A stretch of 64,000 nucleotides of DNA from an uncultured Ignavibacteria bacterium (GTDB taxonomy: Bacteria > Zixibacteria > MSB-5A5 > CAIYYT01), in contig CAZFNN010000013.1 of NCBI GenBank assembly GCA_964520555.1, positions 41,233-105,232 of the forward strand, given 5' to 3'. The position numbers and the translations under genes are program-made. Below are positions 41,331 to 59,560 of this stretch, piece by piece (positions within the stretch are counted from its first letter, which is position 1; every line of letters begins with the position of its first letter). Below the pieces are notes generated by a model, which worked only from the letters and a program-made list of their open reading frames with translations, had not been told where the DNA came from and did not search any database.

Positions 41331-41369
41331 CCCCTTGACCCATCCGCCAATCCTTCCTATACTCTCCCA

Positions 41370-42493: not shown

Positions 42494-42613
42494 TTTGACG
42501 CGCCCATCCCAACCGATTTTTCGCTTTCAGATTCATCGAAATCGCCGGCTCAAGCGTACAAACCAACAAGAAAACTTGCCGATGATGATAGCATTATGTA
42601 CATACCGCGCACT

Positions 42614-44040: not shown

Positions 44041-44301
44041 CTACTTCGGCTGCGCTTTTTTGTTGAGCATTTTCGCCAAACGGCTTTTCTTGCGGGACGC
44101 GGTGTTCTTGTGCATGACATTGCGCTTAACCGCTTTGTCGAGCAGGGAAGTCAACTCCGAATACGACTCGGCGTTCGCGCCCGGCCCCTGCTTCACGGCC
44201 TTGACGGCCGACCGCAGTTCCGATTTCACCGCGCGGTTACGCTCGCGCGCCACTAATGATTGCTTGTGCCGTTTAACGGCGGACTTATGACGTTTAGCCA
44301 A
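44041..44301 (-). CDS. rpsT: 30S ribosomal protein S20
   Basis: 86 aa, basic. (M)AKRHKSAVKRHKQSLVARERNRAVKS is typical of bS20. TTG start with GGAGG 9 nt upstream. Confidence 0.95.
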   Translation of the reverse strand: MAKRHKSAVKRHKQSLVARERNRAVKSELRSAVKAVKQGPGANAESYSELTSLLDKAVKRNVMHKNTASRKKSRLAKMLNKKAQPK

Positions 44302-44368: not shown

Positions 44369-44401
44369 TTGGAAACTAACGCCTCCGAAAAAGGCAGCCT
44401 G

Positions 44402-45949
44402 ATGCGCTCGGCCGGCATCGTCTCCGCCGCCACCCTCATTTCCCGGGTCCTGGGACTGGTACGCGAACAGGTTACGGCTTATTTGTTTGGCGCCGGCGAT
44501 CTGGTCGACGCCTTTAAGTCCGCTTTTCGCATCCCTAATCTCCTGCGTGACATGTTCGCCGAGGGCGCCCTTTCCGCCGGCTTCGTCCCGCTCTTCACCC
44601 AAAAACTCCGCTCCGGCAATCGCGAGGAGGCGGTCCGCTTCGCCGGTCTGGTCTTCGGCGCCCTGACCGCCATCGTCTCGGCGGTCGTGATCTTCATGGT
44701 CGCCGTCACGCCGCAGATCGCGACCGTCATCGCCGAGGGCTTCGAAAGCGTTCCCGGCAAGCTGGATGCCACCATCGCCATGGCGCGCGTCATGATGCCG
44801 TTCCTGCTGTTGGTCTCGCTCGCCGCCATGCTGATGGGCGTCCTCAATTCCCTCGGCAAATTCTTTGTCCCCGCGCTGGCGCCGGCGCTGATGAACGTCG
44901 GCATGATCGTCTGTTCGATCGTTCTCTCACCCTTCGTTGACCCGCCCGTTCTGAGTCTGGCGATCGGCGTCCTCGTCGGCGGCGCCATGCAATTCTTCAT
45001 TCAATACTTGGCGCTCAAAAAGATCGGCTTTCGTTTCCCGCTGATCTTCGACCTGGCTAATCCCGACTTATACCGACTCCTGCTTTTGATACTGCCGACC
45101 GCTGTCGGTTTGGCCGCCACGCAGATCAATGTCGCCGTCATCACCCGCATCGCCTCCGGTGATTCCGGCGCCGTCTCGTATCTCGACTACGCCTTCCGTC
45201 TGCTGCATCTGCCGCTCGGGCTCTTCGCCATCGCCATCGCGACCGTGGCCTTGCCGCGGCTGTCCGGCGAAGCCGCCGCCGGCAACGACGCCGAATTCGG
45301 CCGCATCCATTCCAGCGCCCTGCGTCTCGGACTCTTCCTCAGCCTGCCCGGCACGGTTCTGATGATCCTGCTCGCGCACGAAATCTGCGCCGCCGTTTAC
45401 CAGTACGGTGCCTTCACCGCCGACGATGCCGTCAACACCGGCCGCGCGCTGGCAATGTACGGCATCGGCCTGCCGTTCTTCACGTTGGTGCGCATCTCCG
45501 TTCCGGCTTTCTACGCCCTGCGCGACACCCGCACACCGGCGCTGGTTTCGATCCTGAGCGTTGCCATCAATATCATCCTCTGCTTCCAACTGCAGGGTCG
45601 TCTCGGCTTCGCCGGATTGGCACTGGCAGCTTCGCTGGCCGGCCTCGCCAATTTTGCGCTGCTATCCTACTTGCTGCGCCGCCGCACCGGCCTGGCGCAT
45701 GACGCCGCCTTCTACGGCGCGCTGCTCAAGATCGCCGCTGCTGCCGCCGCAATGGGCGCCGCCGTTTGGGCAACGCGTGAATTCGTCCTTCGGGAACTGG
45801 TCAAAAGTGATTTACACCGACTGCTGCAAGTTGTCATCCTCTGTGCGGTGGCGGCGGCGGTGTTCGTTCTGATGTGCAAAATTTTAAGACTCGAGGAGTG
45901 GACGCGCCTGTGGGGCGCGGTTAGTCGCAAGCTGTCTCGTCGCAGTTAA
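44402..45949 (+). CDS. murJ: lipid II flippase MurJ
   Basis: Motifs SAATLISRVLGLVREQV..LFGAG..DAF..AFRIPNLLR..FAEGALS..FVP. About 14 TM helices. Start is ATG 44402; the tracked TTG 44369 would abut the rpsT -35 box. Confidence 0.9.
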   Translation: MRSAGIVSAATLISRVLGLVREQVTAYLFGAGDLVDAFKSAFRIPNLLRDMFAEGALSAGFVPLFTQKLRSGNREEAVRFAGLVFGALTAIVSAVVIFMVAVTPQIATVIAEGFESVPGKLDATIAMARVMMPFLLLVSLAAMLMGVLNSLGKFFVPALAPALMNVGMIVCSIVLSPFVDPPVLSLAIGVLVGGAMQFFIQYLALKKIGFRFPLIFDLANPDLYRLLLLILPTAVGLAATQINVAVITRIASGDSGAVSYLDYAFRLLHLPLGLFAIAIATVALPRLSGEAAAGNDAEFGRIHSSALRLGLFLSLPGTVLMILLAHEICAAVYQYGAFTADDAVNTGRALAMYGIGLPFFTLVRISVPAFYALRDTRTPALVSILSVAINIILCFQLQGRLGFAGLALAASLAGLANFALLSYLLRRRTGLAHDAAFYGALLKIAAAAAAMGAAVWATREFVLRELVKSDLHRLLQVVILCAVAAAVFVLMCKILRLEEWTRLWGAVSRKLSRRS

Positions 45950-45961: not shown

Positions 45962-48154
45962 ATGCGCGCGCCCGCGCTCTATGCTTTGCTGCTCTTTGTG
46001 GTCGGCATCCTGCTGGCCGCTGCCGTCGAAATCCCGTCACTGGCATATCTCGGGGTGGCGCTGCTCTCCACCGGCGCGGCTCTGGTCTATACTCTTGTCG
46101 AACGCTTGATTCTCAGCCGCATCGCGCTCGCCGTCGCGCTGATTGCCTGCGGCGCTTTTCTGACTCGTCAGCAACTGAGCGATCTTCCCTCCAATCACAT
46201 CTCGCACTTCACCGAGCTGGGTGGCAAGGCGCGTATCATCGGCGTCGTCGCCGACGAACCCGATATTCGCCCGACCCGCACCTACCTCGTGATTGCCGCT
46301 GAGTCCCTCAGCTATCGCGATCGAACGATCCCGGTCTCCGGTCGTCTGCGCGTGCGAATCAACGAACCGACCACCGCGTTCAATTATAAGGATCGCGTCG
46401 CTTTTGATGGTTTTGTCGGCGCCCCCAGTTCAGCGCGCAATCCCGGCGCCTTCGATTACCGTCGCTATCTGGGCAGCCGCGGCATTCACGCCGTCTGCTA
46501 TCTCACCGCTGACGATCGCGTCGAATTGCTCGCATCCGGTGCCGGCGAACCTTTTATCCGCTCGATTGTCGTGCCGGTGCGCGACTACATCATTCGCACC
46601 TACGAACGCTACCTGAGCGCCGAAAACTCCGCGCTCTTGCGTGGCTTCCTGATCGGCGATGTTCGCTTCATTCCCGAGTCCGTCCACAACCGCTTCAGGG
46701 ACACCGGCACCCTGCACGTGCTGGCAGCTTCCGGTGCCAACGTCGGCTACGTTCTCGCCACGATCTTCCTGATCCTGCGTCCGCTGCGCCTGCGCCGACC
46801 CTATCGCTACTTGCCCGCGCTCGTCGGCGTGGTCATCTTTTCTTTCCTCGCTTTCAATCAACCCTCCGTCGTCCGCGCATCCGTGATGGCGATCGTCGCC
46901 TTGGTCGGCATGATGGCGCACCGCGACAACAATTGGCTCAACTCGGTCTGCGTTGCCGGGCTGATTATCCTCGCCTTTCGCCCGCTGTACCTATTTGATC
47001 TGGGTACGCAATTGTCCTTCGCCGCCGCCATCGCGCTGATTCTCTTCATGCCCGTCTGCGAGCCGTGGCTGCCGCAAGGGAAGTCGTGGCCCGTCAAACT
47101 CGCCCGCTATGTAATGATCCTCTTTCTCGGCAGCATCATCGCCCAGCTTGGTGTTGTGCCGATTCTGCTCCACAATTTCCATACTGTGCCGCTGGTGAGC
47201 TTCCTGGCCAACCTCGTGATCGTCCCGCTTGTCGGTATTGTCACCATGCTGGGCATCATTCTCATCTTTCTCTCGCCGATTGCACTCGCCGCGTCCGCTG
47301 TCGGCGCCGCCCTTAAGCATGCCATGGACTTCCTTGGCTCGGCGCTGGCAGTCTTCGACAACCTGCCGATCCCGCCCCTGCGGCTCGGCGCGCCGTCACT
47401 GGCGCTGATCTTTGCCTATTACTTGACTTTGCTGCTGCTGCTGGCGCTCCTTAAGAAAAGCAAATCCGCCGTTGCCTTCGTCTGGCTGCTTCTGATCGCC
47501 CTCAACTTTGGCCTCTGGAGTGCCGCGATCGGTGGGGAAGCCGCCCAGTCACGGGTCACCCTCCTCGACACTGCCAAATTACCGACCGTCGTCGTCGAGA
47601 CTCCCGGCCACGCTCCAACCGTGATCAACGCCGGCACGGTCGAACGCGGTTACGATGCCGGCGAAGCGATCGTCCTGCCGTACCTGCGCTATCGCGGAAT
47701 CACCAAATTGGAGCACATCTTTCTCACGGGCGTCGAATACCACGGACGGGAAGCCATGACCTCCGTCCTCAGCGGTCTGTATCAGCAGCCTCCGCTTCCG
47801 GCCATCGAGACCCGCGACCCCATCATCCGCCTCGAATTCGACTCGCTGCGAATTCTTCTCGTTACTGCCAATCTCCCTGTGCAACAGTTGCACAAACTCG
47901 TTGATCGGGTCGATGTTCTCGGCTTGGACTGGCGGCTTCTGAACAATCCGGCCACCGGCGATTTCGTCCGCCGTCTGCAGCCGCCCGTCGTCGTAATCCT
48001 CAACTATTTCAGCCGTTATGGCGGTGAGGCCGCGCTCACTTCGTTCCGGCTCGCCCACCCGCACTGTCGTGTCTGGAGTACCCTCGAATCCGGCGCCCTT
48101 CAATTGATTGTCGAACGCGGCAGAGTCCGGGTATTGCCGATGGCCAATACTTAG
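45962..48154 (+). CDS. comEC: DNA internalization competence protein ComEC/Rec2 (degenerate C-terminal beta-lactamase-like domain)
   Basis: 730 aa. N-terminal DUF4131-like region. Competence domain motif FRDTGTLHVLAASGANVGYV. The C-terminal soluble domain lacks HxHxDH (it reads FLTGVEYHGRE). Confidence 0.85.
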   Translation: MRAPALYALLLFVVGILLAAAVEIPSLAYLGVALLSTGAALVYTLVERLILSRIALAVALIACGAFLTRQQLSDLPSNHISHFTELGGKARIIGVVADEPDIRPTRTYLVIAAESLSYRDRTIPVSGRLRVRINEPTTAFNYKDRVAFDGFVGAPSSARNPGAFDYRRYLGSRGIHAVCYLTADDRVELLASGAGEPFIRSIVVPVRDYIIRTYERYLSAENSALLRGFLIGDVRFIPESVHNRFRDTGTLHVLAASGANVGYVLATIFLILRPLRLRRPYRYLPALVGVVIFSFLAFNQPSVVRASVMAIVALVGMMAHRDNNWLNSVCVAGLIILAFRPLYLFDLGTQLSFAAAIALILFMPVCEPWLPQGKSWPVKLARYVMILFLGSIIAQLGVVPILLHNFHTVPLVSFLANLVIVPLVGIVTMLGIILIFLSPIALAASAVGAALKHAMDFLGSALAVFDNLPIPPLRLGAPSLALIFAYYLTLLLLLALLKKSKSAVAFVWLLLIALNFGLWSAAIGGEAAQSRVTLLDTAKLPTVVVETPGHAPTVINAGTVERGYDAGEAIVLPYLRYRGITKLEHIFLTGVEYHGREAMTSVLSGLYQQPPLPAIETRDPIIRLEFDSLRILLVTANLPVQQLHKLVDRVDVLGLDWRLLNNPATGDFVRRLQPPVVVILNYFSRYGGEAALTSFRLAHPHCRVWSTLESGALQLIVERGRVRVLPMANT

Positions 48155-48312
48155 CCCGACAAAACACTTACCCCGCTTCAACATCACATTCGGGAATGGC
48201 AATTCACCCTTAAGAATCCCGACCCACCTCCCGATAATGAATATGAAGTAGACCCTGCGGCGAATTGTGTCCGCAGCGAGTTAATTTTTGAACAGTCTAA
48301 CAAGCTGAGATC

Positions 48313-49503
48313 ATGAGTTTTACCGGCAATCTCCAAACGGTGGCGTTTCCCGATTTGCTCCAGTTGTTCTCTGCGGGCAAGAAGACCGGCACTGTAACCA
48401 TTATTCGCGGCAATATCCGCAAAGAGATTGTCTTCAAGGAAGGCAACATCATCAGCGCCAGCTCGCAGGATGCGGAAGAGGACTACCTCGGCCAGATCGT
48501 GCTCAAGAGCGGCCGCATCACCAAGACCGACCTGCAGCGTGCCGTCTACATGCACAAGACGTCGGGCAAGAAGATCGGCCAAGTCCTGGTTGAGATGAAA
48601 CTGCTGAACCGCGAAGAACTCGGCCTCCTTCTCAAACAGCAGGTGGAAGAGATCATCTACAACCTCTTCAGTTGGAAAGAGGGCGAGTTCATTTTCAAGG
48701 AAGGCCAGTTGCCCGCTTCGCGCGAAGGCCTGGTCGAACTCAACACCATGAACATCATCATGGAAGGCACGCGCCGTATCGACGAGTGGGTCGAAATCCA
48801 GAAAGTGCTGCCCTCCGATCATCAGATTCTGCGCGTCGCCGGCACACCGCAGATTAAGTCCGACGAGGTCACCATCTCGCTCGACGAATTCCGCATCCTG
48901 ACGCTGATCGACGGCACCCGCACCGTGCAGGACATCCTTTCGCAGTCGCCGCTCGGCGATTTCGCCACCTCGCGCGCCGTCTACAAGCTCCTGCTCGGCA
49001 AATTGGTGGAAGTCGCCGGCGCCAAGGAAGCCGAAGTGGCCGACCCGCGCGAAGAGGATTCCCTCTTCTGGCTATTGTTGCGCGTCTACGCCGCCTCGTT
49101 CAGCACCGTCCAGCGTACGCTCGAAAAGAAACTCGGCACTGAGAACGAGAAGGTGCAGGTGACCCTCGCCAATTTCCGCAAGGGCATCTGGCAGTACTTC
49201 AACGGTGTCAGCCACGCCGATTTCCCGACGAATTTCGAAGCCCTCAAACGCGCGCTGGCCAAGACTCCGAAAGAAACCCGCACGCTGAAACTGATCAGCG
49301 GCTTGAACCAGATTCTCGAAGAACAGCTCGCCTACGTCTACAACTACCTCGGCATCGAAATCCGCAAGCAGGTGGCCGCCGATATCAAGAAGGAAGTCGC
49401 CTTGCCGCTGGCCGAACGCCGCGAAATCGACAAGAAGTACGACGTCGGCAACGAGCTGTACCGGATCCTGAAGGAAGTGAAAGTGACCAAGGAGGTCCTG
49501 TGA
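48313..49503 (+). CDS. PATAN/DUF4388-domain protein
   Basis: 396 aa. N-terminus MSFTGNLQTVAFPDLLQLFSAGKKTGTVTI...KEIVFKEGNIISA...YLGQIVL..GRIT is the DUF4388 signature. A second helical half follows. Confidence 0.7.
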   Translation: MSFTGNLQTVAFPDLLQLFSAGKKTGTVTIIRGNIRKEIVFKEGNIISASSQDAEEDYLGQIVLKSGRITKTDLQRAVYMHKTSGKKIGQVLVEMKLLNREELGLLLKQQVEEIIYNLFSWKEGEFIFKEGQLPASREGLVELNTMNIIMEGTRRIDEWVEIQKVLPSDHQILRVAGTPQIKSDEVTISLDEFRILTLIDGTRTVQDILSQSPLGDFATSRAVYKLLLGKLVEVAGAKEAEVADPREEDSLFWLLLRVYAASFSTVQRTLEKKLGTENEKVQVTLANFRKGIWQYFNGVSHADFPTNFEALKRALAKTPKETRTLKLISGLNQILEEQLAYVYNYLGIEIRKQVAADIKKEVALPLAERREIDKKYDVGNELYRILKEVKVTKEVL

Positions 49504-49877
49504 TGCGCCTGAACCACACGGCCGGGCTGAGCCTGCTCGCCCTCGTGATCTTGCCCTTCACCGGCGCGGCGGCGCAGACCGCTCCCGGCGAGTCCTCGGC
49601 GGTTGCCGTGGCGGTGGATATTCTGCTGCTGATCGCCGGGTTGCTCTGCTTCTCGATGTGCATGAAGATTTTCGCCCTGCTGAAAGGCGGGGAATTGTCG
49701 CCCGGCTGGCAGCTGCTGTCGGTCTCCTTCCTGATCTTCTCGATCGGCCAGGCCCTCAGCATCTCGCTCGAACTCGACTTCTTGTCGCTGCCCCAGGGCG
49801 CCGTCAGTGCACTGCAGGTGCTGGCCCTGTTTATGATCGTGATGGGCGTCGCCCGCATCAAGAAGAGTCTGACCTAA
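49503..49877 (+). CDS. small membrane protein (signal peptide plus 3 TM)
   Basis: The ATG overlaps the preceding TGA (TGATG), with AAGGAGG 8 nt upstream. About 124 aa. No family recognised. Confidence 0.5.
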   Translation: MRLNHTAGLSLLALVILPFTGAAAQTAPGESSAVAVAVDILLLIAGLLCFSMCMKIFALLKGGELSPGWQLLSVSFLIFSIGQALSISLELDFLSLPQGAVSALQVLALFMIVMGVARIKKSLT

Positions 49878-49898
49878 CCCCAATCCGTGAAGGTCTCT

Positions 49899-50765
49899 AT
49901 GATGGAATCAGCAAGTCTGGCAGAGCGGATCGAAAAGTGCGAGCGGATTCTCAAGGAGAATTCGAACTCGCAGGTCTTCGCCGCGCTCGCCGACGCTTAC
50001 CGGGCTAACGGCGATCTCGATCAGGCGTTCCGCGTCTGTCGGCAAGGCCTGCGCGTCCATCCGACTTATGGGCCCGGCCACCTGGTGATGGCCCGCATCA
50101 GCTTTGAACGCAAAATGTTCGACTGGGCCGAACAGGAACTCGCCGAAGCCGTCGCCATCGACGGCGAAACCCGCGCCACCTCGCAGCTGCGCGTCGAAAT
50201 CCAGATCGCCAAAGGCAACTTCGGCGAAGCGGAATTGGATATCAAGAAGCTCCGCGCCACCGGCACGAATCCGCTGATGATCCAGGACCTGCAACAGCGC
50301 CTGGAGAAAGCCAAGAAGGAACTGCGCCGCCGCCGCAACGAGCAGGCTCCCGCCGTCGGCTTTGCCGCCGCGACCTCCTCGCTGCCGCCCTCGCCGCCGA
50401 CCAAGGTGCAGGAACCGCCGCTGACCTTAAGCCAGATGATGGACTGCGTCAGCGACTTCCCCAACGTCACCAGCGTCGTCTGCGCCAACCATGACGGTAC
50501 CGCCGTCGATCACCGCGGCGCCCCGGCGCAGTCCCCCGGCGAAGTCGCCGCCTTCGGCATCGAAATGTGCCGCAATACGCAAACCGACGGCGCCCGGCAG
50601 GTGCTGGGCGAAGCTCAACAAATCGTCGTGGAGACTCAGGATGCCACCATCGTCATCGTGCGCCTCAGCCGGTACGATCTCGTCCTGATGTGTGATAAGG
50701 ATGTCAACCTGGGCTCGATGCGTCTCAAGCTGGATGAGATCATCGACCGCCTCCGGATTGAATAG
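49899..50765 (+). CDS. TPR-Roadblock/LC7 fusion protein
   Basis: The N-terminal approximately 140 aa are TPR-like (ALADAYRANGDLDQAFRVCRQGL). A Pro/Ala linker follows. The C-terminal approximately 110 aa are Roadblock-like (VTSVVCANHDGTAVDHRG...ATIVIVRLSRYDLVLMCDKDVNLG). The tracked ORF begins at GTG 49887. Confidence 0.6.
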   Translation: MMESASLAERIEKCERILKENSNSQVFAALADAYRANGDLDQAFRVCRQGLRVHPTYGPGHLVMARISFERKMFDWAEQELAEAVAIDGETRATSQLRVEIQIAKGNFGEAELDIKKLRATGTNPLMIQDLQQRLEKAKKELRRRRNEQAPAVGFAAATSSLPPSPPTKVQEPPLTLSQMMDCVSDFPNVTSVVCANHDGTAVDHRGAPAQSPGEVAAFGIEMCRNTQTDGARQVLGEAQQIVVETQDATIVIVRLSRYDLVLMCDKDVNLGSMRLKLDEIIDRLRIE

Positions 50766-50780
50766 AGTTGAGAGGATGCT

Positions 50781-51731
50781 ATGGCTTTGACGATCAGGGA
50801 TGTTCGGCACTTGGTTTTGTTCCTGTTGATTCTCGCGGCGCTGCCGATGCTGGTCTATCCCAATACCCTCGGCTTCGGGATCGGGTTGACCGGTTGGTCT
50901 TACGTCGCCGGCGAGTTGCTGTTCTTTCTGGCGGTCAGCATGATCTTCAATCGCGATACCTCGCTCACCCGCGGCGCTGCCGCCGCCGGCTTGATCTGGA
51001 TCGGCCGCGTCGCCCTCTCCGGCGTCTTCTGCCTCTTCCTGATCGGCATGGAGCGCGTGGCGCCGGCCGCCGCCTGGAGCGATGCGTATCTCGAATTCCC
51101 GCCGGCCGTCTACCTGTTTACACTCACCGCTCCGTTTGTCTTCAACTCGACCGTGAGGTCCATCATGGCTAAAAAACGCCGCGTCCGCAAGCACACCAGC
51201 GAACGCATCATCATCGACGGCGCCGCGCGCGCCACGACGATGACGACGCCGTCCGCGCCGGTGCCGCGCGATTATTCCGTCACCGCCGTGCCGCAACCGC
51301 GACCGACGGCGGAATTCCTCGAACGCACCTTCCAGCACGCCGTCCAGCACGTCGGCGAATACTCCGGCGTCCTCTGCGCCATGCTGATCGACGGGGAAGG
51401 CCTGCCGGTCGCCGGCTGGAGCCGCGGCCGCTACGACCAGGACATGTGGAGCGCGCTCGCGCGCAAAATCGTCGACGACGTCAACCGCACCTGCGCCCAG
51501 GGCGGCACCGTCCATCCCCAAACCCTCGAGTTCAAAACCGGCCAGGAGCGCTTCTTTCTTCAACGCGTCGCCGATATGTGGCTCCTCTCCATCGCCGACG
51601 CCGCCTCCGACGAACTCGAAAAAATCCGCGTGCACCAAGCCGTCGATATGGTGCTGCGCCACCTTCAGGATCGTTACAAAAATCTCTATATGAGCGAAGC
51701 AGGGAGAAGTTATGCGGGAAGTACTGTCTGA
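50781..51731 (+). CDS. membrane-anchored Roadblock/LC7-domain protein
   Basis: 316 aa. About 4 N-terminal TM helices, a basic linker (KKRRVRKH), then a C-terminal Roadblock-like domain (SGVLCAMLIDGEGLPVAG...RFFLQRVADMWLLSIADAASD). Confidence 0.55.
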   Translation: MALTIRDVRHLVLFLLILAALPMLVYPNTLGFGIGLTGWSYVAGELLFFLAVSMIFNRDTSLTRGAAAAGLIWIGRVALSGVFCLFLIGMERVAPAAAWSDAYLEFPPAVYLFTLTAPFVFNSTVRSIMAKKRRVRKHTSERIIIDGAARATTMTTPSAPVPRDYSVTAVPQPRPTAEFLERTFQHAVQHVGEYSGVLCAMLIDGEGLPVAGWSRGRYDQDMWSALARKIVDDVNRTCAQGGTVHPQTLEFKTGQERFFLQRVADMWLLSIADAASDELEKIRVHQAVDMVLRHLQDRYKNLYMSEAGRSYAGSTV

Positions 51732-52047
51732 ACTGAATAAGACCTCCGGGATCACCGGCAGCATGCTCGTCGGGCACGACGGCATCGTCATCGCCGCCGA
51801 TCTCAACAGCAAGTTCGACAACGAAACCATCGGCGCCCTGGCCGGGTCGATCAGTTCCACCGTGGCCAAGAGCCTCGAACGGCTCCAACAAACGCCGTTG
51901 AAACAACTGACCATTGAGGCGGATGAAGCCAAAATGTTCATCGCGGCCACCCCCGTCGGCTATCTCGTGGTGACCGCCGAACCGCGCGTCAACATCGGAC
52001 TCGTTCGTCTCGAAATCAAGAATGCGATCACGCAGATCAGTCTGTAA
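51712..52047 (+). CDS. stand-alone Roadblock/LC7 protein (MglB/MglC-like)
   Basis: 111 aa, overlapping the preceding gene by 20 nt. Motif run ITGSMLVGHDGIVIAADL...AKMFIAATPVGYLVVTAEPRVNIG. Confidence 0.7.
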   Translation: MREVLSELNKTSGITGSMLVGHDGIVIAADLNSKFDNETIGALAGSISSTVAKSLERLQQTPLKQLTIEADEAKMFIAATPVGYLVVTAEPRVNIGLVRLEIKNAITQISL

Positions 52048-52079
52048 GGCCACGGCAGGGAGACTCTAGGAGACTCTAA

Positions 52080-53156
52080 ATGGTATCAATCAACTACGCG
52101 AGCCGGGAAGTTAGCTGCAAGATTGTCTACTACGGCCCCGGCTTGTCGGGCAAGACGACCAACCTGCAATACGTCCACGCCAAGGTGCCGAAAAAAACCC
52201 GCGGCGATCTCATCAGTCTGGCCACCGATGCCGATCGTACGCTCTATTTCGACTTTCTCCCGATCAACATCGGCGCCATCAATGGCTTCGCCACCAAGTT
52301 CCAGCTCTATACCGTGCCGGGACAAGTCTTCTACAATGCGACCCGCAAGCTCGTGCTCCGCGGTGTCGACGGCGTCGTCTTCGTCGCCGATTCCCAGCGC
52401 TCCAAGAAAGAAGAAAACATCGAGTCGCTGAACAACCTCAAGGAAAACCTCGTCGAATACGGCTACGACCTCAACACCCTGCCGATCGTGCTCCAATATA
52501 ACAAGCGCGATCTGCCGGAGGTGATGACGGTGGCCGAACTGCAGGCCGATCTCAACTGGAACAACCTGCCGTTCTTCGAGGCCTCCGCCGTCAAAGGTGT
52601 CGGCGTCTTCGATACGCTGAAACTGATTACCAAGCTGGTGCTCAATAAAGCCAAGAAGGGCGATGACTCGTCCGCTGCCGGCGCCGATGAGGCCGAACCC
52701 GCGGCCGCTTATCCGGCCGGCCCGCAGTCGTCCGGCGCACCGCCACCGGCCACACCGGAGCCGGAATCGGAGTACGAGCGCGCTGCCGCAACAGCCGTCG
52801 CGGCCCCGGCGACCGAAACGGCGCCGCGCCGCGTTGAGGTGCAGGCGCCGCCCGACGAGGAAGAGTGGGCCATGGCGCGCCCGGCGGCAACCGCCGCTGC
52901 GGCGGTTGCGCCCAAGCCGCACAAGCCGACCATCGCGGAGATTGAATCGCATCTGCAACCGATCGGCAATGGCGACTTCAACGCTCTGAAAATGGATAAA
53001 CCCGCGGCCGTGAAAACTACCGCGGACGCGCCTGCGACCGACTACGCCGAAACCTTCGAGGTGCCCAAGGTCGTCGGCATGCAGCGCAGCACCCGCGTCA
53101 AAAAGAAAAAGAAAGTATTCTTCTTATTCCGCTGGTTCAGCCGGGATAAGGATTAG
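52080..53156 (+). CDS. mglA: MglA-type Ras-like small GTPase with approximately 165-aa C-terminal extension
   Basis: Residues 1-194 are nearly co-linear with Myxococcus MglA as I recall it: MVSINYASREVSCKIVYYGPGLSGKTTNLQY, DRTLYFDFLP, YTVPGQVFY, QYNKRDL. The extension is Ala/Pro/Glu-rich and ends RVKKKKKVFFLFRWFSRDKD. Confidence 0.9.
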   Translation: MVSINYASREVSCKIVYYGPGLSGKTTNLQYVHAKVPKKTRGDLISLATDADRTLYFDFLPINIGAINGFATKFQLYTVPGQVFYNATRKLVLRGVDGVVFVADSQRSKKEENIESLNNLKENLVEYGYDLNTLPIVLQYNKRDLPEVMTVAELQADLNWNNLPFFEASAVKGVGVFDTLKLITKLVLNKAKKGDDSSAAGADEAEPAAAYPAGPQSSGAPPPATPEPESEYERAAATAVAAPATETAPRRVEVQAPPDEEEWAMARPAATAAAAVAPKPHKPTIAEIESHLQPIGNGDFNALKMDKPAAVKTTADAPATDYAETFEVPKVVGMQRSTRVKKKKKVFFLFRWFSRDKD

Positions 53157-53171
53157 TCAGGAGGTCTGAAA

Positions 53172-53660
53172 GTGGCTGGCGACAAACTCATTGTCTATTG
53201 GGACGACACCGAGAAAATCGATACGGTGATGACCCGGCTTCTGAAAGGTTCGGAAGCTAAGTGCGCCCTTTTGGTCGATAAGGATGGTCACCTCATCGCC
53301 CGACACGGCTTCACCCAATCTCTCGACACCACCGCGCTTTCGGCGCTCATGGCAGGCAGCTTCGCCTCCACCGCCGAAATTGCCAAGCTCGTGGGTGAAC
53401 CGGAATTCTCCGTCCTCTTTCACCAGGGACGCAAAGACCATATCCACATGGGCATCGTCGGCGACCGCTCGATTCTCGCGGTCATCTTCGACGATCGCAC
53501 CACGATCGGCATGGTCCGGCTCTATGCCAAGGAAGCTGCCGAAGAATTGCAGAAAATCTTCGAAACCGTCCTGCGCAAGGTCAACAGCACCGACCAGGGA
53601 CTGTCCGAAGAATTCACCGCCTCGGCGGAAAATAAACTGGAGGATATCTTCCGCGAATAG
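53172..53660 (+). CDS. mglB: MglB-like Roadblock/LC7 GTPase-activating protein
   Basis: 162 aa, GTG start 15 nt after mglA. Motifs LVDKDGHLIARHG.TQSLDTTALSAL..G, FHQG.KDHIHM.IVG.R.ILAVIFD and an acidic C-terminal helix, as in MglB. Confidence 0.85.
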   Translation: MAGDKLIVYWDDTEKIDTVMTRLLKGSEAKCALLVDKDGHLIARHGFTQSLDTTALSALMAGSFASTAEIAKLVGEPEFSVLFHQGRKDHIHMGIVGDRSILAVIFDDRTTIGMVRLYAKEAAEELQKIFETVLRKVNSTDQGLSEEFTASAENKLEDIFRE

Positions 53661-53698
53661 CTGCGGCAGGAATCGCAGCGGCAGCACCAGGAAGGACT

Positions 53699-55396
53699 AT
53701 GCCGAGCTCTAAAGAATTAGGGACAATGCTCGTCGACGCCGGCAAGATCACCGGCGATCAGCTCACCCAGGCTCTCGCCCTGGTGGAGCAGGGCAAGGGC
53801 CGCATCGAACAGGTCCTCGTGCAGATCGGCGCTGTGCCGGATGAAGAAGATATTACCAACTTCATCGGCAAACAGCTCAACATCGGCGCGATCCGCCTTT
53901 CCGATCTCGAGCTCAATCCCGATATCGTCAAGCTGATCCCCAACGACATTGCGCGCAAGTTCAATGTCATCGCGGTCAGCAAGCTTGGTAAAACCCTGGT
54001 CGTCGCTATCAGCGATCCCAACAATATCTATGTGCTCGATGCGATCAAATTCATCACCGGCTGCACGGTGCAACCGGTCATCTCGCCCGAACCCGCCATC
54101 CAGAAGGCGGTCGAGCACTACTATTCCAATTCCTCGCAGTACACCGAGATTCTCAAGGGCCTCGAAGATTCCGAAATCGAGGTCATTACCGCGGGCGACG
54201 ATGATATCAACGTTATGGAGCTGCAATCGGCGGTGCAGGACAAACCGCTGGTCAAGCTCGTCGACTCGATTATCGCCGAAGCCGTCCGCAAGGGCGCCTC
54301 GGATATTCACATCGAAACCTATGAAAAGCGGCTGCGCCTGCGCTACCGCATCGACGGCGATCTGATCGAAATGGCGCCGCTCCCGTTCAAGTACCGCGCG
54401 GCCATCGTCAGCCGCGTCAAGATCATGGCCGACCTCGATATCTCCGAGCGCCGCCTGCCCCAGGACGGACGCATCAAAATCAAAATCAGCGACCGCGCGA
54501 TTGACCTCCGCGTGTCGGTCCTGCCGACCATCTTCGGCGAAAAAGTCGTGATGCGTATTCTCGACCCGAAAGCCTTGATGCACGATCTGACCCATCTCGG
54601 CTTTCCGGAACTCTCGCTCAAGAAATTCGACAAAGCGATTCACCTGCCGTATGGCATTATCCTCGTCACCGGCCCGACCGGTTCCGGTAAGACGACGACC
54701 CTGTACTCGGCGCTCAAGGCGATCAACACCGTCGACGTCAACATCATGACCGCCGAAGACCCGGTCGAATTCAACTTCGAAGGCATCAACCAGGTCGCGG
54801 TCAAGCCCGATATCGGGCTGACCTTCGCCGCCGCGCTCCGGTCGTTCCTGCGTCAGGACCCGGACATCGTCATGGTCGGCGAAATTCGCGACGGCGAAAC
54901 CGCCGAAATTGCCATCCGCGCTTCGCTCACCGGACACCTGGTCTTCAGCACCCTGCACACGAACGATGCGCCCTCGTCGATCAACCGACTCATCGATATG
55001 GGCATTCCCAACTACCTGGTCGCCTCCGCCGCCAAGCTCATCATGGCCCAGCGTATGGTGCGCCGAATCTGCAAGCGCTGTCGCGAAGAGGTCAAGGCGG
55101 ATTCCGAAGTCCTCCTGCGCCTGGGCGTGCCCGAGGCCGAAATCAAGGGCTTCAAGGTCTACGAGGGCAAAGGTTGCTCCGAGTGCAACAACACCGGCCT
55201 CGCCGGACGAACCGGTTTGTTCGAAGTGATGGAAATCACTCCCGAAGTCGAGCGCCTCATCCTCGAAAACGCGCCGACCCCGGATATTCAGGCCCAGGCC
55301 ATCAAGGAAGGCATGCACACTCTGCGCATGGCCGGCATTGAAAAAGTCAAACTCGGCGTCACGACCATCGAACAAGTTCTGGGCGAGACGTCATAG
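53699..55396 (+). CDS. pilB: type IV pilus assembly ATPase PilB (GspE family)
   Basis: 565 aa. N-terminal GSPII/MshEN-like domain, Walker A GPTGSGKTTT, and the tetracysteine motif CKRC...CSEC. Confidence 0.9.
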   Translation: MPSSKELGTMLVDAGKITGDQLTQALALVEQGKGRIEQVLVQIGAVPDEEDITNFIGKQLNIGAIRLSDLELNPDIVKLIPNDIARKFNVIAVSKLGKTLVVAISDPNNIYVLDAIKFITGCTVQPVISPEPAIQKAVEHYYSNSSQYTEILKGLEDSEIEVITAGDDDINVMELQSAVQDKPLVKLVDSIIAEAVRKGASDIHIETYEKRLRLRYRIDGDLIEMAPLPFKYRAAIVSRVKIMADLDISERRLPQDGRIKIKISDRAIDLRVSVLPTIFGEKVVMRILDPKALMHDLTHLGFPELSLKKFDKAIHLPYGIILVTGPTGSGKTTTLYSALKAINTVDVNIMTAEDPVEFNFEGINQVAVKPDIGLTFAAALRSFLRQDPDIVMVGEIRDGETAEIAIRASLTGHLVFSTLHTNDAPSSINRLIDMGIPNYLVASAAKLIMAQRMVRRICKRCREEVKADSEVLLRLGVPEAEIKGFKVYEGKGCSECNNTGLAGRTGLFEVMEITPEVERLILENAPTPDIQAQAIKEGMHTLRMAGIEKVKLGVTTIEQVLGETS

Positions 55397-55438
55397 CGCC
55401 GCTGACACGGAAAGAGATTCAGAACTGAGGATATTGCC

Positions 55439-56521
55439 ATGATTAACCTGCGCGAATTGCTCGAGATTCTGCTCGAACGGAAAGGCTCCGACCTGCACCT
55501 CTCCGTCGGCTCGCCGCCCCAGGTCCGCGTTGACGGCCGCCTGATTCCGCTCGACATGGACGTGCTGACGCCGGAAACTACCAAGAAGCTGGCCTACAGC
55601 ATGATGTCCGAAAAGCAGAAACAGCGCTTTGAGGAAAACAACGAACTTGATATGTCGTTCGGCATCGAGAACATGAGCCGCTTCCGCGTCAACGTTTACA
55701 TGCAGCGCGGCAATATCTCCGTCGCCCTGCGCCAGATTCCGTTCAAAGTGCCGACCTTCGAAGAACTCGGCATCGACAAAACCATCGTCGAATTCGCCAA
55801 TGTTCCCAAAGGCCTCGTCCTGATTACCGGGCCGACCGGCTCCGGTAAGTCGACGACCCTGGCGGCGCTGATCGACAAGATCAATCGCGAACGCAGGGCG
55901 CATATCCTGACCGTGGAAGATCCGATCGAATACCTGCACCGCCACCAAAGCTGTCTGGTCAACCAGCGTGAAGTCGGCGCCGATACCCGCTCCTTCGCGG
56001 CGGCGCTCAAGTACGCGCTGCGGCAGGACCCCGACGTCGTCCTGATCGGTGAAATGCGCGACCTCGAGACCGTGTCCGAGGCGCTCAACATTTCCGAAAC
56101 CGGCCATCTGACCTTTGCCACCCTGCATACCAACTCCTGCGCGGAGACCATCAACCGCGTCATCGACGTGTTTCCGGTCAACCAGCAGGAGCAGATTCGC
56201 GTGACGCTCTCGTTCGTGCTGCAGGGTGTCGTTTCGCAGCAACTGGTGCCGCGCATCGGCGGCGGCCGCGTCCTGGCCACCGAAATCATGGTCTGTACGC
56301 CCGCCATCCGCGCCCTGATTCGCGACGACAAGATTCACCAAATCTATAGCATGCTGCAATCCGGCCAGAAGTACGGCATGAAGACCATGAACATGTCGCT
56401 GGCTGAGCTCTATCTGGCGCGCAAGATCACGATCGGCGAGGCGATGGCCCGTTCGTCCAACGTGCAGGAACTCAACGAAATCCTCTCGCGCGTGCAGACG
56501 GTCGCGGAAGTGCATCGTTAA
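55439..56521 (+). CDS. pilT: twitching-motility retraction ATPase PilT
   Basis: 360 aa. Motifs GSDLHLSVGSPPQVRVDG, GPTGSGKSTT, and the AIRALIRDDKIHQI motif. Confidence 0.92.
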   Translation: MINLRELLEILLERKGSDLHLSVGSPPQVRVDGRLIPLDMDVLTPETTKKLAYSMMSEKQKQRFEENNELDMSFGIENMSRFRVNVYMQRGNISVALRQIPFKVPTFEELGIDKTIVEFANVPKGLVLITGPTGSGKSTTLAALIDKINRERRAHILTVEDPIEYLHRHQSCLVNQREVGADTRSFAAALKYALRQDPDVVLIGEMRDLETVSEALNISETGHLTFATLHTNSCAETINRVIDVFPVNQQEQIRVTLSFVLQGVVSQQLVPRIGGGRVLATEIMVCTPAIRALIRDDKIHQIYSMLQSGQKYGMKTMNMSLAELYLARKITIGEAMARSSNVQELNEILSRVQTVAEVHR

Positions 56522-56542
56522 CGAAGATAACTGGAGGTTGTT

Positions 56543-57742
56543 ATGCCGGTTTTTGAATACAAAGGCAAGACGGTCACCGGTTCGCAAGTCGAAGGCGAAC
56601 TGAAAGTCAAAGACCGCGCCGAACTCGATCGCATTCTGCGCCGCAACAAGATCCTGGTCGACAAGGTTTCCAAGAAGCCGTCGCAGATCCAGATCAAGAT
56701 CGGCTCGGGCATTAAGAAAGTGCACATCTCCCGCTTCACGCGCCAGTTCGCGACCATGATCGGCGCCGGTCTCCCGATGGTGCAGTGCCTGGATATTCTC
56801 TCCAAGCAGATGGATTCCCAGGAATTCTGCAAAATCATCGGCGAAATCAAGGACGCCGTTTCATCCGGTTCGACGCTCTCGGAGGCGATGGGCAAGCACA
56901 AGAAGGTCTTCGACGAACTCTACGTCAACATGGTCGAGGCCGGTGAAATGGGCGGCGCCCTCGACACGATTCTCGTCCGCCTCGCCAACTATCGCGAAAA
57001 AGCCGACGCGCTGACCCGCAAGGTCAAGGGCGCTTTGGTCTATCCGGCGATTGTGTCGCTGGTCGCGACCGGCGTGACGATTGCGATGTTGACCTTCATC
57101 GTGCCGATCTTCGCCAAGATGTTCGCCAATCTCGGCGCCGAGCTGCCCGGCCCGACCCAGTTCGTGCTCGGCATCTCGCACTTCCTGCAGAACTATTTCC
57201 TGGTGATCCTCGGCGCGCTGGTGCTGCTTTTCGTCGCCTTCAAGATCATGATGCGCAACGAAGAAGGCCGCTTCCAGTTTGACAAGTTTATGCTCAAAAC
57301 GCCGGTCTTCGGCGATTTGATCCGCAAATCCGCGGTTGCGCGCTTCACCCGCACCCTCGGCACGCTGATTCAGTCCGGCGTCACCATTCTCGACGCCCTC
57401 GAAATCACCGCCAAAACCGCGGGTAATAAGGTACTCCAGCGGGCGATCAAGAAATCGGTGCTGTCGATCGCCGAAGGCGATACCATCACCAACCCGCTGA
57501 AAGAATCGGGCGTGTTTCCGCCGATGGTAATCCAGATGATTGGCGTCGGCGAAAAAACCGGCGGTCTCGACGAAATGCTCTCCAAGATCGCCGACTTCTA
57601 CGATGAGGAAGTCGATGCGGCCGTCAGCGCCCTGACCTCGATGATCGAACCGATCATCATCGTCTTTATGGGTATCGTGATCGGCGGCATCCTGATCGCC
57701 ATGTACTTGCCGATGTTCGACATTATTGGCAAGATCAACTAA
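56543..57742 (+). CDS. pilC: type IV pilus platform protein PilC (GspF family)
   Basis: 399 aa. Two GspF-type repeats and three TM segments. N-terminus MPVFEYKGK. Confidence 0.9.
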   Translation: MPVFEYKGKTVTGSQVEGELKVKDRAELDRILRRNKILVDKVSKKPSQIQIKIGSGIKKVHISRFTRQFATMIGAGLPMVQCLDILSKQMDSQEFCKIIGEIKDAVSSGSTLSEAMGKHKKVFDELYVNMVEAGEMGGALDTILVRLANYREKADALTRKVKGALVYPAIVSLVATGVTIAMLTFIVPIFAKMFANLGAELPGPTQFVLGISHFLQNYFLVILGALVLLFVAFKIMMRNEEGRFQFDKFMLKTPVFGDLIRKSAVARFTRTLGTLIQSGVTILDALEITAKTAGNKVLQRAIKKSVLSIAEGDTITNPLKESGVFPPMVIQMIGVGEKTGGLDEMLSKIADFYDEEVDAAVSALTSMIEPIIIVFMGIVIGGILIAMYLPMFDIIGKIN

Positions 57743-57773
57743 GCGTCCGTTCGGCAGACAACCTTCGACTGAG

Positions 57774-57805
57774 GCCACCTCCGCTTGAGCGGAGGTGGCT
57801 TCTTC
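57774..57805 (+). promoter_or_regulatory. perfect 11-bp hairpin: weak terminator or translational control element
   Basis: GCCACCTCCGC (57774-57784), TTGA loop, GCGGAGGTGGC (57789-57799), then TTCTTC and ATG at 57806. The 3' arm contains the only SD (GGAGG) of the kinase gene. Confidence 0.5.
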
Positions 57806-59560
57806 ATGACGATGAAACAGCGTAAGAAAAAGCTCAAGGAAGAGTTGCGCAGCTTCTGGTTCATCCCGCTGCGCCTTTCGATCTTCCTATTGCTCTTCGG
57901 CGCCGTCGTCCTCAACGAAAGCACCCAGCGCCAGACCTTCTGGCCGTTCCTGCTCTACTCGCTGGCGACGCTGCTGTTCCTGCTCGTCATCGAGATCGAC
58001 GCCCGCTTCTTCCGTCCCGGCTTCCTGCGCACGATCATCTTCGTTCACTTTGCCTTTGAGTTGCTGGCCGAGGGCGCCATTATCCAGAGCGCCGGCCAGT
58101 TGACGGTGCAGTATTCCATCCTGTTCCTGCTCACGATCGTCTCGGCCAGCCTGATCTACAAACTCGTCGGGACGATCACCATCGCCACGCTGGCTTCGCT
58201 GACCTACGCCTTCACCTCCAGCCTCAATCGGCTCTTCGAGAAAGGCGAAGCCATCTCCTTCGACACCTTCCGCATCACCGTGCAGGGCAATGACGACGTC
58301 TTCTACGCGATCTTCATCCACGTCTGCACCTTCTATCTGGTCGCCTTTATCTCCGGCTTCCTCGCGCAAAAGCTCCGCGCCAAGGAAGGCGAACTCACGC
58401 ACGCTTCGGAAGAACTCGAGCGCGTTCAGCTTGACACCGACGACATTCTCCAGAATCTCCATTCCGGTCTCGTCACCGTCGACGCCGCCGGCCGCATCGT
58501 CTATTTCAACCGCGCCGCCGAAAATATCCTTGGCTATCGCGGCATCGATGTGAAAGGGAAGAGCTTTCTGGAGGTCTTCAATCACTCCATGCCCGACTTC
58601 TGCGAACGCGTGCTCTCGGTACTCAAACTGGCCAAGCCGAATGTGCGCACCGAGGTGGAGATCGTCGGCAAGAATGGCCGGCGCCTGCCGCTCGGCCTCT
58701 CCGCCTCGATCCTCGGCGATGAACGCATCGGCCTGCGTGGCGTGGTCGCCGTCTTTCAAGATCTTACCGCCGCCAAGGAGATGGAGCAGGCGCTGATCAA
58801 GGCGGACCGCCTCGCCGCCGTCGGCGAACTCTCGGCCCGCATCGCCCACGAAATTCGCAACCCGCTCGCCTCGATCTCCGGCTCGGTGGAAGTCCTCAAG
58901 AACGAAATCGCCTTGCAGGATGACAATGCCCGCCTGATGCAGTTGATCGTGAAAGAATCGGAGCGGCTGTCGCGGATTCTTAACGATTTCCTCAGCTACG
59001 CCCGCACCGGCCCCGGTCGCTCAGCCAAAGTCGAAATCGTCTCGGTCGCCGGTGAAGTCGTCGAACTGCTGCGTCATGACCCGCGCGTGCCGGCCGGCGT
59101 CAAATTCGAATTCGTCACCGCGCAACCGACCGACTACGTTATCGGCGACGAAGATCAGATCCGCCAGGTCTTGCTCAATATTCTGACCAACGCCGTCGAT
59201 GCCGTCGCTCCCGACGACGGACGCATCATCGTGAAAATCGGCCTCCACGCCCAACGGGCCGAATATCCCGCCGGCGATTGGCTGAGCCTTGTCATCACCG
59301 ACAATGGCAGCGGTATCAGCCCCGACGTCAAAGACAAACTGTTTGAGCCGTTCTTCTCGCGCAAGAAGGGAGGCACCGGCCTTGGCCTGGCGATCGTCAA
59401 GCGCTGCGTCGACAACATGAGAGGCCACATCGAAATCGAATCGGCACCCGGCGCCGGTGCCAAGTTCATCCTCTATCTCCGCCGCTACCAGCTTGCCCGC
59501 GATGAAGAAATGACAGCCGCGCCGGACTCATCCAAAGCTGCTCTTCTCAACGCCAAGTAG
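57806..59560 (+). CDS. PilS-like sensor histidine kinase (6 TM, PAS, HisKA, HATPase)
   Basis: H-box [13 protein letters not shown]-box [12 protein letters not shown]-boxes DNGSGI and [10 protein letters not shown]. Sits in the position after pilC, as pilS does in Myxococcus/Geobacter clusters. Confidence 0.8.

Follow-up and report, generated by a model that had tools for sequence, protein, structure and literature searches.

A Zixibacteria gene cassette that may link an MglA/MglB polarity switch to the type IVa pilus motors

Background

Why would the genes for a Ras-like polarity switch stand in one row with the genes for the type IVa pilus motors? This question is raised by a locus in a 64-kb stretch of DNA, referred to here as the window, from contig CAZFNN010000013.1 of an uncultured bacterium of the phylum Zixibacteria. 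In this locus, genes for the small GTPase MglA, its partner MglB, and several accessory proteins are followed by pilB, pilT, pilC, and a gene for a PilS-type kinase. MglA and MglB are the model of Ras-like polarity control in bacteria, and nearly all knowledge of the mechanism has been gained in Myxococcus, in which the partners lie dispersed across the genome and had to be found singly. The row in the window can be seen as a parts list written by evolution. The reading favoured here, with confidence somewhat above even, is that this is a Zixibacteria-wide cassette that would couple the MglA/MglB switch directly with the motors of the type IVa pilus.

The eleven-gene row and the pilus motors

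Eleven open reading frames (ORFs) lie in one row on the + strand at 48313-59560 in the ORF list of the window. These are called g1 to g11 here and are listed with the motif that ends the MglA protein; lengths are in amino acids (aa).

48313..49503, + strand: g1, PATAN/DUF4388 protein, 396 aa (Pfam DUF4388, 118 bits)
49500..49877, + strand: g2, small membrane protein, 125 aa (predicted from hydropathy segments)
49887..50765, + strand: g3, TPR-Roadblock protein, 292 aa (Pfam TPR_19, TPR_14, and TPR_2; profile search)
50781..51731, + strand: g4, membrane-Roadblock protein, 316 aa (hydropathy; profile search)
51712..52047, + strand: g5, stand-alone Roadblock/LC7 protein, 111 aa (Pfam Robl_LC7, 36.5 bits)
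52080..53156, + strand: g6, MglA, group 1 GTPase, 358 aa (PDB 5ymx, E 4e-82)
53085..53153, + strand: C-terminal polybasic/aromatic motif of MglA, RSTRVKKKKKVFFLFRWFSRDKD, a proposed membrane-targeting sequence
53172..53660, + strand: g7, MglB, Roadblock-fold GTPase-activating protein (PDB 6izw_B, E 2.4e-39)
53699..55396, + strand: g8, PilB, type IVa pilus extension ATPase (TIGR02538, 708 bits)
55439..56521, + strand: g9, PilT, retraction ATPase (TIGR01420, 488 bits)
56543..57742, + strand: g10, PilC, inner-membrane platform protein (two T2SSF domains)
57785..59560, + strand: g11, PilS-type sensor histidine kinase (6TM_PilS, PAS, HisKA, and HATPase_c)

The pilus end of the row contains a type IVa motor set of PilB, PilT, and PilC, with PilC below the equivalog cut-offs. 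PilB matches TIGR02538 above its cut-off of 675.65 bits, as well as T2SSE (465 bits), and has an N-terminal MshEN domain (64 bits). PilT exceeds the cut-off of 319 bits for TIGR01420, the PilT/PilU family, and its translation includes the AIRALIRD motif. The two T2SSF domains of PilC score 220 bits; against Myxococcus-type PilC, the best NCBIfam model gives 525 bits, under the equivalog cut-off of 700. The match of g11 to 6TM_PilS is 37 bits. The order pilB-pilT-pilC-pilS is also that of Myxococcus and Geobacter. No PilR-type regulator or pilin follows pilS up to 62102 in the window, nor does a response regulator follow it in three other Zixibacteria loci (L002, L007, and L012), and a PilS-PilR pair is therefore not seen.

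The junctions between the genes are short. There is a GTGATG overlap between g1 and g2 (49500-49505) and a 20-nt overlap between g4 and g5 (51712-51731). The gaps are 15 nt from mglA to mglB, 38 nt from mglB to pilB, 42 nt from pilB to pilT, and 21 nt from pilT to pilC, with 42 nt ahead of pilS if its TTG start is used or 63 nt to its first ATG. This spacing suggests that the eleven genes are co-transcribed, and the cassette is probably a single operon or two closely linked operons. A scan for promoters and terminators gave no signal above the shuffled expectation. A promoter-like site at 48210-48238, 5' of g1, was not counted as evidence.

An earlier first-pass annotation, made from the letters of the window, had described eleven + strand ORFs with tight junctions, and the ORF list bears this out, its overlap at g1/g2 being the GTGATG above and its 63 nt before the kinase gene being the first-ATG figure. 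The gene products that it had named are also recovered. Its MglA call is upheld by the 5ymx match and by conservation of TVPGQ and the Arg-Thr pair, its DUF4388/PATAN protein by the 118-bit match, and its pilB-pilT-pilC genes with a PilS-like kinase by the TIGR02538, TIGR01420, T2SSF, and 6TM_PilS matches. The four Roadblock domains that it had counted are likewise found, two (g5 and MglB) by Pfam and two (g3 and g4) once ortholog profiles and hhalign were used.

Conservation of the cassette in Zixibacteria

The locus sample took one genome per GTDB species with MglA and returned 80 loci, with which fourteen proteins of the window were compared by tblastn. As far as the contigs reach, the cassette is present in 18 further species-level loci (L001-L017 and L020), most of them labelled Zixibacteria; the others have different automatic labels and the same cassette. 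In full, the genes run in the order MurJ, ComEC, PATAN, small ORF, TPR-Roadblock, membrane-Roadblock, Roadblock, MglA, MglB, PilB, PilT, PilC, and PilS. The same eleven genes appear in gene calls made independently on contigs of JGI and ENA. The accessory proteins are 22-54% identical across the 18 loci. When the close relative L001 is excluded, the identities are 30-54% for the PATAN protein, 27-39% for g3, and 22-31% for g4, and it is because they are this low outside L001 that the gene order can be said to have outlived deep divergence.

The spacing is also retained. Across Zixibacteria, the median distances are 14 nt for g3-g4, -17 nt for g4-g5, 27.5 nt for g5-mglA, 17 nt for mglA-mglB, 67.5 nt for mglB-pilB, and 25.5 nt for pilT-pilC. 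The conserved cassette has its 3' border at pilS. The gene that comes after it encodes a DUF255 protein in the window; in L007 and L012 its place is taken by a gene for a peptidyl-prolyl isomerase, and in L002 by ATP synthase.

Outside Zixibacteria, about 60 of the loci belong to Myxococcota, Acidobacteriota (including Thermoanaerobaculia), Gemmatimonadota, Desulfuromonadota (relatives of Geobacter), Planctomycetota, and BRC1. By tblastn, none of these has PilB, PilT, or PilC within 10 kb of mglA. The order is mglB-mglA in Myxococcota, Thermoanaerobaculia, Gemmatimonadota, Geobacter relatives, and others, and Roadblock-mglA-mglB in Planctomycetota, where a g5-like gene stands before mglA, as it does in BRC1. 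The BRC1 locus, from a Sumerlaeota metagenome-assembled genome (L018:7868-15040), encodes a g3-like protein (hhalign probability 99), a g4-like protein (probability 94.4, E 9e-8), a Roadblock protein, a long MglA, MglB, and a PATAN protein. A 125-aa ORF 5' of its g3-like gene was considered as a g2 homologue and rejected, since its translation is not membrane-like and the ORF is probably spurious.

Since BRC1 has the regulatory genes without pilBTC, the module is not bound to the pilus by necessity. With BRC1 in this state and the Roadblock-mglA-mglB order present in Planctomycetota, the regulatory half is read as an older unit. Its joining to pilB-pilT-pilC-pilS appears to be specific to Zixibacteria in this sample. 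For group 1 MglA, a 2014 survey reports PATAN neighbours as occasional only, and no pilus genes (PMC4316618).

MglA, MglB, and the MglA tail

The G domain of MglA occupies aa 1-195, and the match to the solved M. xanthus MglA (5ymx) covers aa 3-197. In the alignment to M. xanthus MglA, the P-loop GPGLSGKT and the guanine-specificity motif NKRD are identical. The same holds for the G3 motif TVPGQ and for R53-T54, an arginine finger of the intrinsic kind with the G2 threonine beside it (DRTLYFDF); this pair and YTVPGQ are invariant in 33 homologues. An intrinsic Arg beside the G2 Thr and TVPGQ in place of DxxGQ are the hallmarks of group 1 MglA (PMC4316618). Group 1 proteins are single-domain and of about 195 aa and the window MglA has 358 aa; on its sequence, the G domain is thus a group 1 member and the architecture is a variant.

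MglB matches M. xanthus MglB (6izw_B) over aa 3-162, which is its whole length including the C-terminal helix region, and has a Robl_LC7 domain (48 bits). Against the NCBIfam equivalog for Thermus-type MglB, it scores 90.6 bits, under the 200-bit cut-off, and that equivalog is not applicable. Family membership predicts that MglA binds guanosine triphosphate (GTP) and that MglB stimulates its hydrolysis.

The remainder of MglA (aa 196-358, window 52665-53156) is a tail of 163 aa that is rich in Ala, Pro, and Glu. All 19 of the Zixibacteria MglA proteins, from the window and its 18 orthologues, have tails of 133-281 residues that are rich in Ala, Pro, Glu, and Ser and unconserved in sequence, and in all 19 a conserved basic/aromatic motif closes the tail. 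The 120 best MglA homologues in a large protein collection also have the tail; 118 of them carry a variant of the motif at the C-terminus, and their lengths are 325-473 aa save for one protein of 248 aa. The variants in these 120 include KKKKKxFFLFRWFSRDxD, KKKRSFWRKLFSWI, KKKGFFLFRWLFGRK, and KKRGFFKRLFGIK, of which KKRGFFKRLFGIK almost equals the membrane-targeting sequence of E. coli MinD, KGFLKRLFGG. Among the GTDB orthologues, the form seen most often, KK(R/P)GFFKRLFG(I/L)K, is near the same sequence, and in locus L005 the MinD core GFLKRLFG is present exactly. As a tandem tag, KGFLKRLFGG has tethered a chloroplast FtsZ fusion to the membrane (PMC5471200).

In Planctomycetota, four MglA homologues have a hydrophobic segment of 19 residues near the C-terminus, with Kyte-Doolittle values of 2.1-2.75, and by this feature the protein looks like a tail-anchored protein. 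Two different devices, a motif and a transmembrane helix, thus occupy the same place, which argues that membrane attachment is the purpose of the tail and that its end is a putative anchor. No description of a membrane anchor on MglA, and no form of MglA with a predicted membrane tether, was found in the literature, including the 2014 survey (PMC4316618). The Planctomycetota loci concerned are L043, L044, L047, and L067, where the MglA ORFs start near 6611, 4210, 10001, and 10001, respectively; the proteins are of 311-356 aa, with the helix-like segment within the last ~25 residues.

The Roadblock proteins and g2

Of the four Roadblock proteins, Pfam alone supports the domain in g5 and MglB only. 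With single sequences, g4 scores 17.5 bits against Robl_LC7, where the cut-off is 23, and g3 matches TPR repeats and no Roadblock family in Pfam. Ortholog alignments were therefore built for g3, g4, and g5 and used in profile searches against structures and in hhalign comparisons. The g3 C-terminus then matches the Roadblock protein 7yh1_D (E 1e-9) and LAMTOR2 (E 6e-6), and g3 aligns with g5 at a probability of 98.7. The g4 C-terminus matches the Roadblock protein 7f8f (E 1.3e-5) and dynein roadblock (5e-5), and its probability with g5 is 91. The g5 profile itself matches 7yh1_D at E 2e-13. With MglB, g3, g4, and g5 make four supported Roadblock domains, those of g3 and g4 by profile only.

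Each of the three accessory Roadblock proteins has its own layout. In g3, an N-terminal TPR region (aa ~14-140) is followed by a variable linker and the C-terminal Roadblock domain (aa ~180-290). The N-terminal ~125 aa of g4 have, by hydropathy, two strongly and about two weakly hydrophobic helices; after them come a variable linker and the C-terminal Roadblock domain (aa ~185-300). On this prediction g4 is an integral membrane protein. It has only 154 representatives among 1.84 billion proteins and no Pfam model above threshold. The stand-alone g5 is 51-96% identical across Zixibacteria. An identity of g5 as an MglC ortholog was considered and rejected, since the PDB profile search returned no MglC/MglB chain at E <= 0.01.

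The small protein g2 has a signal-peptide-like N-terminus and three hydrophobic helices by hydropathy. A conserved loop motif, (R/K)GGxLSxxW, comes after the first helix past the signal-like segment. No family match above threshold was obtained for g2 in Pfam and NCBIfam searches. An ORF of 120-128 aa that aligns with it is at the same position in most Zixibacteria loci and is called as a gene in L081 and L082.

The PATAN protein

The match of g1 to Pfam PF14332 (DUF4388/PATAN) spans aa 4-159 and has an insertion at aa 56-110. The AlphaFold model of g1 has a predicted local distance difference test score (pLDDT) of 80.6 and a predicted template modelling score (pTM) of 0.47. In it there are a beta core, a four-helix insertion, a helix-strand region at about 190-237, and a helical C-terminal region at 245-387. 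The insertion (window 48478-48642) resembles the N-terminal repeats of pilus ATPases. By profile it matches Vibrio MshE at E 9e-8 and Thermus PilF at E 2.5e-15, the latter as a sum over three repeats, and Foldseek aligns it locally with the GSPII-A domain of PilF (probability 0.99, root mean square deviation 1.9 A). The g1 model has no significant global Foldseek match in PDB, nor any significant structural neighbour outside the insertion; weak alignments with GATOR1/SEAC subunits and with MukF (E ~0.1) were set aside.

There is no receiver domain in g1, as it has no Response_reg match and its C-terminal half is all-helical, and therefore g1 is not a PatA-type response regulator. Its best matches included 516 homologues of ~396-403 aa, few of them named, as DUF4388 or hypothetical; a protein with 99% identity to g1 is labelled candidate division Zixibacteria.

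MshEN/GSPII-type alpha-clip repeats are common to g1 and the N-terminus of PilB (window 53699-53880). Receptors for cyclic di-GMP (c-di-GMP) of the MshEN type have two tandem RLGxxLLxxG...Q motifs with a conserved Arg. The c-di-GMP motif model NF053729 scores 36.6 for g1 and 35.6 for PilB, its cut-off being 38, and at the position of the first motif's Arg, g1 has Tyr or Leu and PilB has Glu. The motif thus reads as degenerate in both proteins.

In cyanobacteria, a PATAN domain binds the N-terminal domains of PilB1 and PilC, and the likeness of the PATAN alpha-clip to the N-terminus of the pilus ATPase has been noted in the same work (bioRxiv 2021.06.11.447907). By analogy, g1 is proposed to be an adaptor to PilB and PilC. 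Whether the placing of type IV pilus motors is a general role of PATAN domains was said there to be something that 'remains to be seen' (bioRxiv 2021.06.11.447907), and the cassette gives genomic support to such a role.

Neighbouring genes and the rest of the window

The genes 5' of the cassette are as follows.

45962..48154, + strand: ComEC, DNA-uptake channel (Pfam Competence, 177 bits, and DUF4131)
44369-45949, + strand: MurJ, preceding ComEC
44041-44301, strand opposite to MurJ-ComEC and before them: S20, also called in L081 and L082

MurJ and ComEC are kept upstream of the cassette in the Zixibacteria loci, and this neighbourhood could hint at a link between the pilus and DNA uptake. The gap from ComEC to g1 is 158 nt in the window and has a median of 124 nt, and up to 423 nt, across Zixibacteria. 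ComEC is probably a transcription unit apart from the g1 row. None of comEA, dprA, and comF was seen in the window. No pilR, pilin, or pilMNOPQ genes are near the cassette, and the rest of the window contains no other pilus genes and encodes metabolism and transport.

Some features of the window lie apart from the cassette. The GC skew is negative in all 2-kb bins (cumulative -3.28) despite the mostly + strand genes. No tRNA gene or Rfam family was matched in the 64 kb. Three tandem + strand paralogues of 376, 429, and 371 aa at 18601-22189 each have an EB_dh (ethylbenzene dehydrogenase-like) domain. Three large proteins probably have a secreted or surface location: an FG-GAP repeat protein (788 aa, 24771-27137), a subtilase (570 aa, 27623-29335), and an LVIVD-repeat protein (714 aa, 32133-34277, - strand). 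Long ORFs without a Pfam match at E <= 1e-5 are at 40113-41843 (-), 42596-43717 (+), 38290-38964 (+), and 16611-17615 (+); the first of these, of 576 aa, may be spurious given the GC-rich sequence.

Proposed mechanism

From the domain identities, catalytic motifs, conserved order and spacing, and conserved tail motif described above, we infer that the genes are transcribed together and that membrane binding occurs, as well as every contact between the proteins and the output of the system. MglA would be held on the cytoplasmic membrane via its long disordered tail with the MinD-like polybasic/aromatic end, and MglB, as a Roadblock dimer, would stimulate GTP hydrolysis and end the active state. 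The membrane protein g4, the TPR-fused g3, and the stand-alone g5 may form a membrane-anchored Roadblock scaffold that fixes the site at which MglB or MglA acts, and g2 may take part in it. MglA-GTP would engage the TPR domain of g3, as it does the TPR effectors SgmX and Bd2492, and may also engage the PATAN protein g1. Because the cyanobacterial PATAN domain binds both PilB and PilC, and because g1 has an alpha-clip like that of the PilB N-terminus, g1 could contact the two. The TPR domain of g3 together with g1 would then bring PilB to PilC or activate it there, with PilT as the competitor.

The outcome would be a decision on where and when PilB or PilT occupies the PilC platform, and thus on the site of pilus extension and retraction, with the PilS-type kinase supplying sensory or transcriptional feedback. 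Homology with known systems suggests that polarity or retraction control is what the cassette provides. A more detailed version is tentative and on balance doubtful. It would have MglA tethered by a hypervariable linker and a basic/hydrophobic anchor, acting on a Ragulator-like Roadblock scaffold and coupled through TPR and PATAN adaptors to the pilus motor, in Zixibacteria and, in another form, in Planctomycetota. If this is true, membrane tethering replaces the polar recruitment of the RomR/RomX type found in Myxococcus, and is an independent or ancestral solution for putting a small GTPase on the membrane.

Alternative explanations

It is conceivable that the MglA/Roadblock/PATAN module controls another process, such as gliding, secretion, or envelope polarity, and that pilBTC-pilS is merely adjacent in a position frozen early in the phylum. 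MglA in Myxococcus also controls gliding, the BRC1 module precedes receiver-domain and PDZ proteins and not pilBTC, parts of the module occur without pilus genes in Gemmatimonadota and Planctomycetota, and mglB-pilB is the loosest spacing between regulatory and motor genes. That spacing is short all the same at its median of 67.5 nt, however, and the order and orientation are constant in 18 of 18 Zixibacteria genomes while the flanks past pilS vary. PATAN and MglA have also each been tied to PilB independently by experiment, and mere adjacency is therefore unlikely. Still less likely is a cassette that serves a competence pilus, in which DNA would be imported through the adjacent ComEC and the GTPase module would time or place uptake pili instead of motility. 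Type IV pili and ComEC cooperate in the transformation of many bacteria, and ComEC lies directly 5' on the same strand, with MurJ-ComEC-cassette kept as a block in Zixibacteria. Yet the ComEC-g1 gap is larger and variable, comEA, dprA, and comF were not seen in the window, and all known functions of MglA are in polarity or motility. A competence role would also be compatible with the wiring of switch to motors, because one pilus can do both.

The least likely of the three alternatives concerns the MglA tail, the end of which would bind another partner, such as a cytoskeletal filament, nucleic acid, or PilB, with the linker as a spacer or phase-separation region. SofG, a paralogue of MglA in M. 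xanthus, carries extensions and acts together with a scaffold of bactofilin, and the terminal motif of the window MglA has neither a helix in the AlphaFold model nor an outstanding hydrophobic moment. The motif is nonetheless at the extreme C-terminus behind a polybasic run, nearly identical to a MinD motif that alone carries fusion proteins to the membrane, and in the Planctomycetota homologues with the Robl-mglA-mglB order there is a true transmembrane helix instead.

A number of points count against direct wiring of the switch to the motors. The cassette yielded no RomR/RomX-like recruiter or exchange factor. Among its internal gaps, those of mglB-pilB (a median of 67.5 nt and a maximum of 155) and pilB-pilT (a median of 146 nt) are the widest, and they leave room for internal promoters. 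In BRC1, a receiver-domain protein and a PDZ protein stand where pilBTC would. The AlphaFold model of full-length MglA, made from a gappy 33-sequence alignment, has a pLDDT of 54.9 and is poor in the G domain as well; it shows the tail as unstructured, which is a weak indication only, and the terminal motif without a helix. The hydrophobic moment at the MglA C-terminus is 0.38-0.76, not above the maxima in the linker, a measure that does not discriminate here because the MinD peptide itself scores only 0.38. The evidence as a whole is comparative and comes from the sequences of an uncultured phylum.

What is known and what is new

Every component family of the cassette is known already, as is the control of type IV pili by MglA in Myxococcus and Bdellovibrio. 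The first-pass annotation had placed Thermus beside these two as a genus in which MglA-MglB directs PilB and PilT; to our knowledge, such sorting is not established in Thermus, the proteins of which served for structures. Its statement that Myxococcus mglBA is unlinked to the pil genes agrees with the locus comparison, its view of the linkage as unusual is strengthened by the absence of PilB, PilT, and PilC near mglA in the loci of other phyla, and its non-myxobacterial lineage is Zixibacteria. It had also asked whether the gene order is common and already characterised. The order is common to the 18 further Zixibacteria genomes, and no characterisation of it was found in the literature. The description of the cassette as 'self-contained' was too strong, as pilR, pilin, and pilMNOPQ are not nearby and no factor for exchange or recruitment was identified. 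Absent from that annotation was the most unusual feature of the locus, the conserved MglA tail with its membrane-targeting-like end.

Literature searches found no paper on Zixibacteria with MglA, pili, or motility. Per the searchable literature, the physical linkage of switch and motor is new. So are the set of four Roadblock proteins with a membrane-integral member and a TPR fusion, the PATAN protein that apparently lacks a receiver and opens the array, and the putatively tethered MglA. Although the phylum is uncultured, the small soluble proteins of the cassette suit production in E. coli.

Comparison with known systems

The closest counterpart is the polarity module of Myxococcus xanthus, which comprises MglA, MglB, MglC, RomR/RomX, and RomY, with SgmX as an effector. 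The window MglA is ~63% identical to M. xanthus MglA over the G domain and has the intrinsic Arg and TVPGQ in common with it, and the MglB proteins are ~44% identical, C-terminal helix region included. Extra Roadblock proteins and a TPR protein take part in both, and in Myxococcus the output is through PilB and PilT. Two papers report that MglA-GTP stimulates type IV pili via the TPR protein SgmX (PMC7668184, PMC7519303), and MglA binds the TPR protein Bd2492 (PMC3983030). The list of candidates from which the M. xanthus pilus regulator SopA emerged included PATAN and TPR proteins (PMC11580455). The differences lie in arrangement and architecture. Myxococcus has the order mglB-mglA away from the pil genes, whereas in the window mglA-mglB is followed by pilB. 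The window MglA has the 163-aa tail with its membrane-targeting-like end, the TPR is fused to a Roadblock domain in g3, and one Roadblock protein, g4, is predicted to be membrane-integral. In addition, g5 has no MglC match in the PDB profile search, and a RomR/RomX homologue was not seen in the cassette.

The cyanobacterial PatA-type regulators PixG, PixE, and LsiR, which combine PATAN and receiver domains, have an alpha-clip insertion like the N-terminal repeats of the pilus ATPase, as does g1. They contact the N-terminal domains of PilB1 and PilC, and the same contact may be expected of g1. In place of a receiver, g1 has a helical C-terminal region of 150 aa, and the link of its gene is with a GTPase switch instead of a chemosensory system.

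Among the relatives of the module, BRC1 has nearly the same regulatory order, but the PATAN gene comes after mglB instead of leading, and the polybasic end is absent from its MglA tail. Planctomycetota have Robl-mglA-mglB in common with Zixibacteria, with an MglA that seems to be tail-anchored and without PilB, PilT, or PilC within 10 kb.

The membrane-targeting sequence of MinD, like the motif of Zixibacteria MglA, is short, lies at the very C-terminal end, and has the form (K/R)n-GF(F/L)KRLFG. In MinD it is directly on a ParA/MinD ATPase, whereas here it is on a Ras-like GTPase via a linker of 133-281 aa that is predicted to be disordered, and the window variant, KKKKKVFFLFRWFSRDKD, is more aromatic.

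Two eukaryotic systems can be compared by analogy only. As in Ragulator/LAMTOR-Rag, several Roadblock subunits, one of them apparently membrane-anchored, are encoded here beside a small GTPase. The Roadblock fold is shared and no orthology is claimed, and the anchors here would be a transmembrane domain and an amphipathic-type motif, not lipids. The MglA tail, with its variable linker and basic/hydrophobic end, is in turn similar to the hypervariable regions of lipid-anchored Ras and Rab proteins. The cassette may offer a bacterial comparison for the eukaryotic pairing of a Roadblock scaffold with a membrane-anchored small GTPase.

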